Part shown: piece by piece, positions 8,600-9,913 of the stretch | How the letters are laid out: every line of letters begins with the position of its first letter | How positions within the stretch are numbered: the stretch's first letter is position 1 | Source: a virus | Lineage: Duplodnaviria > Heunggongvirae > Uroviricota > Caudoviricetes | Length of the DNA stretch: 11,620 nt | Direction: 5' to 3' (one strand) | Virus record (IMG/VR): IMGVR_UViG_2531839468_000021 | Notes under the pieces: generated by a model | What the model saw: the letters and a program-made list of their open reading frames with translations, nothing else | What the model was told of the DNA's origin: nothing | The model's database searches: none | Made by a program: the position numbers and the translations under genes

Positions 8600-9913
8600 A
8601 TGGCAGTAAAGATTTCAGGTGTACTGAAAGACGGCACAGGAAAACCGGTAGAGAACTGCACCATTCAACTGAAAGCCAGACGGACCAGCAGCACGGTGGT
8701 GGTGAACACGCTGGCCTCAGAAAATCCGGATGAAGCCGGGCGTTACAGCATGGACGTTGAGTACGGTCAGTACAGCGTTATTCTGTTGGTGGAGGGATTC
8801 CCGCCGTCACATGCCGGGACTATCACCGTGTATGAAGATTCTCAACCCGGTACGCTGAATGATTTTCTCGGTGCCATGTCGGAGGATGACGTCCGGCCGG
8901 AGGCACTGCGCCGTTTTGAACTGATGGTGGAAGAGGTGGCGCGTCACGCTGAGGAGGCGAAGAAGAATGCCGGAGAGGCGGAGACGTCAGCAAGGAATGC
9001 CGGCATATCAGCCAGTCAGGCAGAAAAGAGCGCTGCACATGCTGACACTTCAGCAGGATATGCATCGGAGTCAGCCCGGCAGGCGGCAGAAAGTGCAGCC
9101 TCAGCAAAGCAGTCAGAGGATGCGTCCTCGTCCTCGGCCTCTGAGGCCGCTCAAAAAGCCAGTGAGTCATCACAAAGTGCAGCAGAAGCTGAATTGTCAA
9201 GAAAGACGGCAGAAAGTGCAGCCGGTAATGCAGCCAGGGATGCAACGACCGCAGCAGAAAAAGCCCGGGAGTCAGCAGAAAGCGCACAGTCAGCGGAACA
9301 AAGCAGGATAGCGGCGGAAGACGCCGTAAACCGAATCCCCACCGTGGTGGGACCTCCCGGGCCAAAGGGGGAACAGGGGCCCGCGGGTCCTCAGGGGCCG
9401 AAGGGTGATAAGGGAGAGCGCGGTGACACCGGCCCTGTCGGGGCAACCGGCGAACGGGGACCGGCAGGTGATGCTGGTCCTGCAGGCCCGCAGGGGCCGA
9501 AAGGTGACAGGGGGGAACGGGGAGAGACCGGTCTGACGGGAAGTACAGGTCCACAGGGGCCAAAGGGAGATACCGGTGCAGCAGGCCCGGCAGGCCCACA
9601 GGGACCGAAAGGAGAAACAGGTGCGGCAGGTCCGGTGGGGGCTACCGGACCTCAGGGGCCGAAGGGAGACCCGGGCGAGACACAAATCCGTTTTCGTCTG
9701 GGGCCGATGAGCATTATTGAGACAAACAGCTATGGCTGGTTCCCGGATACAGATGGTGCGCTCATCACCGGACTGACCTTTCTTGACCCCAAAGATGCCA
9801 CACAGGTTCAGGGGATGTTTCAGCATTTGCAGGTCAGATTTGGTGACGGGCCGTGGCAGGATGTTAAGGGGCTGGATGAAGTGGGCAGTGATACAGGCAG
9901 AACAGGAGAATGA
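8600..9913 (+). CDS. stf: Side tail fibre protein (437 aa): lambda Stf-like N-terminal attachment domain, Ala/Ser/Glu-rich low-complexity segment, 36 uninterrupted collagen-like G-X-Y triplets, distinct C-terminal globular domain
   Basis: N-terminus [28 protein letters not shown]…[25 protein letters not shown] matches the lambda Stf N-terminus by recollection. Residues ~112-245 are A/S/E-rich. Residues 251-358 are [20 protein letters not shown]… (36 G-X-Y). The C-terminal ~80 aa ([26 protein letters not shown]…) are unlike the lambda Stf distal part. Confidence 0.88.
9350..9673 (+). repeat. Collagen-like G-X-Y coding repeat within stf (36 triplets) with recurring near-identical DNA units encoding GPQGPKG
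   Basis: The translation shows 36 consecutive G-X-Y triplets. The motif GPQGPKG(D/E) recurs five times, with DNA units of the form caggggccgaa(a/g)gg. Confidence 0.85.
9904..9908 (+). promoter_or_regulatory. Ribosome-binding site (AGGAG) for the small ORF downstream of stf
   Basis: AGGAG sits 6 nt upstream of ATG 9915, within the last codons of stf. Confidence 0.6.

Follow-up and report, generated by a model that had tools for sequence, protein, structure and literature searches.

Between lom and the T3SS effector gene espV, both morons, a tailed-phage sequence from IMG/VR (record IMGVR_UViG_2531839468_000021; 11,620 nucleotides analysed in full, hereafter the window) carries a gene whose product joins a lambda-like N-terminus to a collagen-like shaft and a non-lambda distal domain. 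What is this protein, how would it be built and used, and what is the role of the small gene that directly follows it? The explanation that we favour, with a probability of roughly 0.9, is that it is a lateral tail fibre of the EPclA class from a siphovirus-type lambdoid prophage whose host is an Escherichia coli of the attaching-effacing or Shiga-toxigenic-like kind, and that its build, docking, function and variation follow the scheme proposed below.

Gene context and domain organization

Genes in the window are ordered H-M-L-K-I-J-lom-fibre, as in lambda, and this order is collinear with annotated prophages. The fibre open reading frame runs from an ATG at 8600 to a TGA at 9911–9913, and its 437-aa product shares 95% of residues, end to end, with an equally long RefSeq protein (‘prophage tail fiber N-terminal domain-containing protein’). 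Three Pfam families (PF08400, PF01391 and PF06820) score well over their cut-offs in it, and its best PHROG matches are tail-fibre families. A search of the window against Rfam returned no RNA family. The features of the module are as follows (all on the + strand):

8562..8583, +, terminator-like GC-rich hairpin in the lom–fibre interval (8 pairs, 7 of them G-C), with a T run after it (TTTTTGTGGG)
8600..9913, +, side tail fibre gene, EPclA type by sequence, 437 aa, stop codon included
8600..8878, +, collar (tail-attachment) domain, residues 1–93, the core of PF08400/PfN, from a gapless alignment to 9e7m_Ta
8882..9349, +, Ala/Ser/Glu-rich heptad segment (PCoil, predicted trimeric coiled-coil rod), residues ~95–250, from composition and periodicity
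9350..9682, +, collagen triple-helix tract of 37 Gly-X-Y triplets, residues 251–361, from sequence and PF01391
9686..9877, +, PfC distal domain, residues 363–426, followed by an 11-residue tail, from the PF06820 match
9904..9908, +, AGGAG Shine–Dalgarno motif of the 89-aa gene, 6 nt before its ATG and inside the end of the fibre gene, read from the sequence
9915..10184, +, 89-aa gene: short Cys-containing N-terminus and a second, paralogous PfC (residues 28–89; PF06820, E=2.7e-35; phrog_576)
10198..10222, +, terminator-like hairpin (11 pairs, T-rich tail after it) closing the two-gene fibre module

An earlier, sequence-only reading had described the protein as a mosaic of a lambda-type N-terminus, an A/S/E-rich segment (a coiled-coil or low-complexity spacer), a collagen shaft and a non-lambda distal domain, and each of these parts is recovered by our analysis. 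The lambda Stf-type domain that it placed over the first ~100 residues corresponds to a PF08400 match over residues 1–133 (profile positions 1–133 of 134, E=1.9e-68, 229 bits versus a cut-off of 26.6), and residues 1–93 align ungapped with the collar chain of the Ur-lambda Stf (9e7m_Ta, PDB 9E7M; E=1e-52), with about 85 of 93 positions identical (~91%). In Ur-lambda, the collar domain binds gpV and gpM, and three collar domains are linked per trimeric fibre (PMC12617516). The A/S/E-rich segment that was said to follow is also present: residues 101–250 contain 44 Ala, 25 Ser and 22 Glu (61% of 150), and the dominant period over residues 95–250 is 3.49 residues, close to the ~3.5 of heptads, a signal equalled in none of 2000 shuffles.

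The collagen tract is single and unbroken and, at 111 aa, has the length of EPclA type members (PMC3368898, Table 2); a run of 37 Gly-X-Y triplets cannot arise by chance. The sequence-only reading had thus recognized a genuine tract, but had counted 36 triplets ending at 9673 where there are 37 ending at 9682, the last GPK-GDP-GET step having been missed.

Length polymorphism of the shaft

Among homologues that share both end domains, the tract counts 4, 8, 14–16, 19–21, 25, 26, 32, 34 or 37 triplets, the range across homologues being 4 to 38, and published collagen lengths extend from 63 to 144 residues (PMC3368898, Tables 2–3). Comparison of the repeat number across relatives, which had been put forward as a check, therefore reveals the length differences that were expected. 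Every shorter tract inspected equals the window tract minus one in-frame block, and the ends of these blocks lie within the repeated motifs GPQGPKG, GPVGAT and GD[KR]GER. At the DNA level, the deletions measure 261, 198 and 63 nt, in agreement with the distances between repeats; for GPQGPKG, spacings of 261 and 63 nt were measured. Deletion ends within repeats and sizes that match their spacing fit repeat-mediated recombination or slippage, in line with the earlier suggestion that fibre length changes between isolates by way of these repeats. Mapping of microhomology at the deletion junctions was uninformative, as the true parental sequences differ from that of the window.

The nature of the repeats requires a correction. 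The tract had been described as built from recurring near-identical DNA units; units do recur, but they are short and diverged (60–82% identity). Five GPQGPKG motifs are present (residues 263, 296, 317, 332 and 350), whose coding copies have 16–19 of 21 nt in common with exact runs of just 5–17 nt, and the dispersed DNA repeat families of the tract are 60–77% identical. Tandem Repeats Finder reports a single 45-bp unit in two copies (82% matches) and nothing else. With this two-copy unit as the sole tandem repeat, strict tandem-repeat slippage was rejected, and recombination between dispersed repeats fits better.

The distal domain

The PF06820 match of the fibre covers the whole profile (positions 1–64 of 64, E=4e-34, 117 bits versus a cut-off of 25), and at E<=0.01 the Pfam search of the fibre protein returned neither PF03406 nor a gp37-like match. 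The tip is thus unrelated to that of the lambda Stf, as had been proposed. The accompanying statement that such distal domains and their receptors are generally uncharacterized holds for the receptor and the fold, but not otherwise: EPclA was studied biochemically in 2012, and PfC was shown there to be a trimerization module (PMC3368898).

Structural searches brought little to the question of the fold. A sequence search of solved structures gave no match for PfC or for the 89-aa protein. AlphaFold2 monomer models of residues 346–437 (24-row alignment, pLDDT 55.1) and of the 89-aa protein (19-row alignment, pLDDT 56.7) are all-beta and too poor to use, and the best Foldseek hit of the former in the PDB has E=4.8. 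An exhaustive PfC search of 1.84 billion representatives yielded 45 matches, nearly all of them fragments of the same Escherichia family, and a separate profile search added no new lineages. Big_7 Ig-repeat proteins, and a fibre with ‘THIQWRLGxGAWQNL’ repeats, were matched weakly over several stretches; we take this as no more than suggestive and did not adopt an Ig-like fold.

Only two PfC sequence types were found, that of the fibre and that of the 89-aa protein, and each is almost invariant across homologues. Receptor binding is most likely the function of the fibre PfC, as a putative role. However, such conservation is unusual for a receptor-binding tip, and a pure trimerization cap or a protein docking site would fit equally well. 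As regards candidate receptors, a preprint on phi24B argues against BamA binding by a related C-terminal domain; according to it, BamA is also not recognized by the lateral fibres of lambda_2B8, whose shaft and C-terminal domain are closely related (bioRxiv 10.64898/2026.04.10.717836).

A PfC-only gene coupled to the fibre

The 89-aa gene starts after a 1-nt spacer from the fibre stop codon. This spacer and the GGAG motif are kept in every locus, the window included, in which the 89-aa gene could be located (81 of 83 sequences), and where the upstream reading frame can be read that far it always ends in PfC. The PfC of the 89-aa protein is 37% identical to that of the fibre. Its gene has a dN/dS of ~0.14 overall and 0.09 in the PfC part, versus 0.23 for the fibre PfC; the value of 0.14 points to purifying selection, and thus to a gene kept for its protein product, beyond any use as spare DNA. 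PF06820 is its sole Pfam match and phrog_576 its PHROG match; no chaperone family, Tfa included, was detected. Two readings of its N-terminus (LCGCGKHDGCEH), a zinc-binding and a lipoprotein motif, were discarded, as positions C20 and H22 vary (frequently R or N) and a hydrophobic signal segment is missing. We infer that this gene encodes a conserved, expressed and translationally coupled fibre accessory.

Could this small protein, rather than the fibre, be the receptor-binding element? On such an account, PfC would merely be a folding nucleus or cap (foldon-like), and the 89-aa protein a Tfa- or gp38-like tip adhesin or assembly chaperone that co-assembles on, or exchanges into, the tip. The gene occupies the position of lambda tfa with a constant spacing and ribosome-binding motif, it is under purifying selection, it encodes a paralogue of a domain known to trimerize (PMC3368898), and the fibre's own PfC hardly varies. 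On the other hand, the late-region genes of Sp5 classed as non-essential include the orthologue, ORF68 (PMC5155283), the stronger conservation of the PfC in the 89-aa protein relative to that of the fibre would be unusual for a host-range determinant, the protein matches no chaperone family in Pfam, and a place for the protein in the virion is purely putative. On balance, we consider this account unlikely. A more elaborate version, in which the two genes form a two-component tip, the 89-aa protein capping or intercalating with the PfC trimer as adhesin or assembly factor while shaft length (4–38 triplets, ~3–33 nm) tunes the reach of an invariant tip through O-antigen or capsule, appears unlikely too. 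Mondal et al. proposed for Sp5 ORF68 a role as a PfC reservoir (PMC5155283), that is, mainly a cassette whose spare PfC recombines with the fibre 3' end and diversifies the tip. Some database proteins are hybrids, such as a collagen tract joined directly to the small-gene PfC (P0210), a small-gene N-terminus carrying a fibre-type PfC (P0284) and fusions of fibre and small gene of 494 aa (P0016 and P0018); yet these are rare single-member clusters, perhaps assembly or frameshift artefacts. Moreover, two almost invariant PfC types leave little diversity to shuffle, and a silent cassette would need neither a conserved start codon and ribosome-binding site nor its 27 N-terminal residues, nor would it be expected to show a dN/dS of 0.14–0.21. 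We therefore judge a reservoir role to be improbable.

State and abundance of the element

With the fibre and 89-aa genes as query, 4846 of 5426 complete E. coli genomes gave at least a partial match, and 693 matched over at least 80% of the query; genomes have a median of two matching places and a maximum of 17, and many Stx phages match as well. Compared with intact relatives, the tail genes H (tape measure; near 455), L (near 2874) and J (near 6426) of the window are each broken by the loss of 1 nt in a T run.

This raises the possibility that the prophage is defective and the fibre gene a relic, unused by its own element, that persists only as a resource for other resident lambdoid prophages, through recombination or complementation. 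Along with the breaks in H, L and J, the multiplicity of matching places per genome speaks for it, and prophage–prophage complementation is documented for O157 (PMC2669165). Nevertheless, the fibre and 89-aa reading frames are both intact and their family is under purifying selection, while the three deletions all fall in homopolymer runs and could be sequencing errors instead of decay. We regard the relic status as possible, with a minority share of our confidence, and it bears on the state of the copy in the window, not on the identity of the gene. Given the deletions in H, L and J, this copy may never have assembled on a tail of its own.

Proposed architecture and significance

The domain anatomy, gene context and length polymorphism described above are direct observations, whereas the trimer, triple helix, coiled coil, PfC trimerization and collar docking are established in the literature for close homologues. 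On this basis, the EPclA-class fibre of the window would be assembled as follows. [quoted passage not shown] By analogy with Ur-lambda, the three N-terminal collar domains, on short linkers, would dock where the tail tube (gpV) meets gpM, in a ring of 12 domains that would hold four fibres per tail, this mode of docking being carried over from the lambda system. A small PfC knob would thereby be projected ~55–60 nm from the tail, where its most likely task is an initial, reversible contact with a putative cell-surface structure, and such a contact could speed adsorption before J engages its own receptor. Between prophages, fibre length would shift over the observed range as segments between the dispersed GPQGPKG-coding repeats are deleted or duplicated in frame; the coiled coil would lose blocks likewise, both end domains staying nearly invariant.

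The direct value of this result is small, since the window adds a further allele to a fibre class that has been described and characterized biochemically and is present in most E. coli genomes. Such fibres, however, ride on Stx-converting and effector-carrying prophages, so that their specificity bears on the spread of virulence genes. Thermostable collagen scaffolds and host-range modules for phage engineering are possible uses.

Comparison with known systems

By its sequence, the fibre is of the EPclA type, which is common in E. coli lambdoid prophages and already known, and adds merely a new allele to it. EPclA of E. coli O157:H7 (ECs2717 or Z0982) shares the PfN, PCoil, single collagen tract and PfC of the window protein, is of equal size (437 aa with 111 collagen residues; PMC3368898) and is likewise encoded after J and lom in a lambdoid prophage. 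Ghosh et al. described it in 2012 as a trimer with a coiled coil, seen as a dumbbell of 55–62 nm, and as a true collagen triple helix with a Tm of 42 C (PMC3368898). The allele of the window differs from known members in that its exact sequence was not found among 15 billion proteins, the best complete-genome DNA match of the fibre and 89-aa genes being 97.3%, and in that espV adjoins the module where the compared loci hold other effectors.

The Ur-lambda Stf (PDB 9E7M/9MGH), with its ~91% identical collar (PMC12617516), similarly forms a trimeric fibre beginning in a coiled-coil rod, is encoded downstream of J and lom, and has an accessory role in adsorption. The lambda Stf, by contrast, has Pf2 repeats (PF03406) and a T4 gp37-like tip that binds OmpC, and the chaperone gene tfa lies downstream of it, whereas the window fibre has a collagen shaft and a PF06820 tip and is followed by a PfC paralogue.

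EPclB, which forms the lateral fibre of short-tailed Stx phages (933W L0121, Sp5 ORF67/ECs1228, phi24B gp61), also consists of PfN, PCoil, collagen and PfC, and the same 89-aa PfC-only gene follows it (ORF68 in Sp5). It is distinguished by two to three collagen tracts split by a Pf2 repeat, a length of ~645 aa and a podovirus tail adaptor, where the window protein has a single tract and belongs to a siphovirus tail module. In Sp5, the EPclB homologue is essential and was located at the tail end of the virion by immunogold labelling (PMC5155283).

The unhydroxylated Gly-X-Y helix, stabilized by proline and charge and placed next to a globular trimerization domain, is a feature in common with streptococcal Scl1/Scl2 and Legionella Lcl, and one could imagine the gene to be prophage cargo that encodes a collagen-like adhesin of the bacterial surface or a virulence factor. 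Its location among the morons lom and espV and weak NCBIfam matches of the Gly-X-Y tract to SclB, Lcl and SclA would agree with this. These matches are nonetheless far below their cut-offs (92.6 versus 325, 87.1 versus 500 and 70.1 versus 400, respectively) and reflect the collagen repeat only. Scl1/Scl2 and Lcl are secreted, wall-anchored surface proteins, whereas the window protein starts with a phage tail collar domain, shows by eye neither a signal peptide nor an LPXTG anchor, and has a homologue that sits on virion tails (PMC5155283). Such a cargo role is effectively refuted.

Finally, EPclC and EPclD of Shigella and E. coli have the same PfN-PCoil-collagen front, up to 88–91% identical over the shared part (P0073–P0111), but carry PF13884 (Peptidase_S74), a domain of the S74 intramolecular-chaperone type, in place of PfC. 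This distal replacement indicates that the tip is a swappable module.

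Gene content and state of the prophage copy

The window, the tail end of a lambdoid prophage, carries the following features:

to 2102: tape-measure gene H, running in from the window start
2099-2428: M
2428..3054 and 2844..3125: L, split, between M and K
3131-3874: K
3772-4413: I
4474-7868: J, split (4474..6441 and 6429..7868)
7887-7906: strong terminator-like hairpin, 5' of lom
7936-8535: lom (Ail/Lom family)
8562-8583: strong terminator-like hairpin, between lom and the fibre gene
8600-9913: side tail fibre ORF, 437 residues
9915-10184: 89-aa ORF
10198-10222: terminator-like hairpin, 3' of the 89-aa ORF
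10412-11620, minus strand: 402-aa ORF, EspV, named through its exact product in a public collection

Three of the tail genes are each one base short relative to intact Escherichia coli relatives: H lacks a base near 455 (450-470), where a T run is shortened and a stop gained at 454-456; L is reduced from TTTT to TTT near 2874 (2870-2878); and J lacks one base immediately 5' of a TTT near 6426 (6420-6432), a deletion that splits its Ig_J domain, mid-domain, across two ORFs. Either the tail module is defective and decayed, or these are homopolymer errors of sequencing or assembly. The fibre gene and its 89-aa partner are intact, and the pair is flanked by the terminator-like hairpins at 8562-8583 and 10198-10222.

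The lom gene, lying between J and the fibre gene, is likewise enclosed by two strong hairpins and so has the layout of a moron that is expressed independently. The 402-aa ORF has no Pfam match; a public collection contains its exact sequence, which several sources there label 'secretion protein EspV'. EspV is a type III secretion effector, here encoded tail-to-tail with the fibre module. In the prophages compared, this slot is filled by other cargo: one carries nleB2/nleC, a second nleG7 and a hypothetical protein.

Domain organization and mounting of the fibre

Pfam places PF08400 (PfN) on fibre residues 1-133 (E=1.9e-68), a collagen match (PF01391) starting at residue 251 and PF06820 (PfC) on residues 363-426 (E=4e-34). 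Ala, Ser and Glu make up 61% of residues 101-250, and segment 95-250 has a dominant period of 3.49 residues, reached by 0 of 2000 shuffles, which is a coiled-coil signature. Among the four architectures described for collagen-like proteins of EHEC prophages (Ghosh et al. 2012, PMC3368898), EPclA has the order PfN, coiled coil (PCoil), single collagen tract (Col), PfC.

The N-terminus had been called lambda-type, correctly: residues 1-93 align without gaps to PDB 9E7M chain Ta, the N-terminal collar domain of the Ur-lambda Stf (E=1e-52, approx. 85 of 93 identical). In Ur-lambda, this domain touches gpV and gpM, and each trimeric fibre contributes three collar domains through linkers of about 10 residues; the virion bears four side fibres and the collar was treated by C12 symmetry expansion (PMC12617516), together implying 12 collar domains per tail. 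By transfer from lambda, the mounting of the present fibre on its tail may be read from this domain.

Length variation of the shaft

The uninterrupted Gly-X-Y run comprises 37 triplets (residues 251-361, nt 9350-9682), one more than the 36 of the sequence-only reading. That reading had also predicted variation in repeat number, which is indeed present: among database representatives sharing the N- and C-terminal domains of the fibre, tracts contain 4, 8, 14, 15, 16, 19, 20, 21, 25, 26, 32, 34 or 37 triplets; collagen lengths of 63-144 residues were reported by Ghosh et al. (PMC3368898). Compared triplet by triplet, each shorter tract inspected is the window tract less one in-frame block, the ends of which sit in a recurring motif. 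In the 8-triplet form the first and last GPQGPK are brought together, in the 15-triplet form the two GPVGAT copies, and the 32-triplet form is without the 45-bp unit found by Tandem Repeats Finder. At the DNA level, deletions relative to the window measure 261, 198 and 63 nt, of which 261 and 63 nt are measured distances between GPQGPKG copies.

The five GPQGPKG-coding copies are identical at 16-19 of 21 nt (exact runs of 5-17 nt), repeat families within the tract are 60-77% identical, and the only tandem repeat is a two-copy one at 82%. Given such modest identity, the earlier wording of 'near-identical units' is too strong; short dispersed repeats, with recombination or slippage between them, describe the tract better. 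Apart from this wording and the triplet count, the first description was accurate, and its interpretation is supported.

The coiled-coil region varies as well, homologues lacking blocks of 28, 41 or 63 residues (fibre residues 159-221, window approx. 9074-9262). At 41 residues, the second of these blocks does not divide into heptads, in contrast to the generalisation that PCoil regions typically differ in length by whole heptads (PMC3368898).

The distal domain

As anticipated, the distal domain is unrelated to the lambda tip: it is PF06820, and Pfam returned neither PF03406 nor gp37-type matches to the fibre. Searched exhaustively, 1.84 billion representatives gave 45 matches, almost all fragments of the same family, and word-indexed searches found hardly any PfC outside Escherichia and Citrobacter rodentium. 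On these searches PfC is restricted to a narrow lineage, and within the fibre family it is nearly invariant (pairwise dN/dS 0.23). Database proteins with PfC are in many cases partial ORFs, frequently from contigs of only a few hundred bases; this multi-copy prophage gene may routinely break short-read assemblies.

Structure prediction and fold searching, proposed earlier as a check on this domain, yielded no assignment. Sequence searching of solved structures gave no match to PfC, both monomer models from AlphaFold2 were of low quality (pLDDT 55.1 for fibre residues 346-437, 56.7 for the 89-aa protein), and Foldseek, run with one of the two, returned nothing better than E=4.8. A cryo-EM preprint on phi24B obtained no confident model of the related C-terminal domain either; it argues that this domain does not bind BamA, and notes that the lateral fibres of lambda_2B8, which carry closely related sequences, do not recognise BamA (bioRxiv 10.64898/2026.04.10.717836). 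One function of PfC, trimerisation, is established.

Two weak leads, proteins P0304 and P0306, came from PF06820 itself: a fibre-like protein of 938 aa in which 'THIQWRLGxGAWQNL' units recur (3.6e-9) and an archaeal-looking Big_7 Ig-repeat protein (3.2e-6). The C-terminal half of PfC (fibre approx. 380-430, window 9740-9890) resembles the former repeat unit and also the 'VEVRxDDGPWQ' strands of the Big_7 Ig-like repeats. These resemblances may be a hint that PfC descends from an Ig-like or beta-sandwich domain.

A second PfC gene downstream of the fibre

The 89-aa ORF consists of a 27-residue N-terminus followed by a second PfC (PF06820, E=2.7e-35), 37% identical to that of the fibre. Its ATG lies 1 nt past the fibre stop codon and 6 nt past an AGGAG. 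Of 83 sequences, the gene could be located in 81, namely 78 of 80 related viral contigs, both E. coli chromosomes examined and the window itself, and all 81 keep the 1-nt spacer and the GGAG core. Upstream ORFs readable that far, EPclA-type and EPclB-type alike, all end in PfC. Pairwise dN/dS, a rough measure here because the compared sequences are related and recombining, is 0.14 across the whole gene, 0.21 over the N-terminus and 0.09 over the PfC part, showing selection on the protein.

The Sp5 orthologue, ORF68, is among the non-essential late-region genes, and was proposed to be a reservoir for fibre variation (Mondal et al., PMC5155283). Conserved translation signals and purifying selection argue for an expressed accessory protein, perhaps one that partners the tip or acts in assembly. 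Rare chimeras of the two PfC genes, hybrid or fused, occur in the database: in P0210 collagen is followed directly by the small-ORF PfC, P0284 has the N-terminus of the small ORF ahead of a fibre-type PfC, and in P0016 and P0018, each of 494 aa, the fibre and the small ORF are fused. These proteins may be genuine recombinants, or artefacts of assembly or frameshifting.

A new allele of EPclA

The fibre family is very common. With the fibre and 89-aa genes as query, 4846 of the 5426 complete E. coli genomes gave a match to part of it, in a median of 2 and a maximum of 17 places each. In 693 genomes the match extended over at least 80% of the query, and 386 phage records, mostly of Stx-converting phages, matched as well. 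The exact 437-aa protein is absent from a collection of 15 billion protein sequences, and the closest complete-genome DNA match over both genes is 97.3% identical. The fibre is a new allele of a known, characterised class. Unlike the fibre, the 89-aa protein and EspV have exact matches in that collection, on shared contigs; the fibre gene (window 8600-9910) may be a recombinant allele, or poorly assembled elsewhere.

The fibre is an EPclA protein. Most EPclA copies in O157:H7 EDL933 and Sakai have 437 aa and a 111-residue collagen tract (PMC3368898), the very dimensions found here, and a 437-aa RefSeq member is 95% identical to the fibre over its whole length, without gaps. Recombinant EPclA is a trimer whose collagen tract forms a true triple helix (Tm 42 C); its PfC trimerises alone and allows fast helix refolding, and the molecule is dumbbell-shaped, measures 55-62 nm and is hinged between its two rods (PMC3368898). 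The related EPclB is essential in Stx2 phage Sp5, where immunogold labelling located it at the tail end (PMC5155283).
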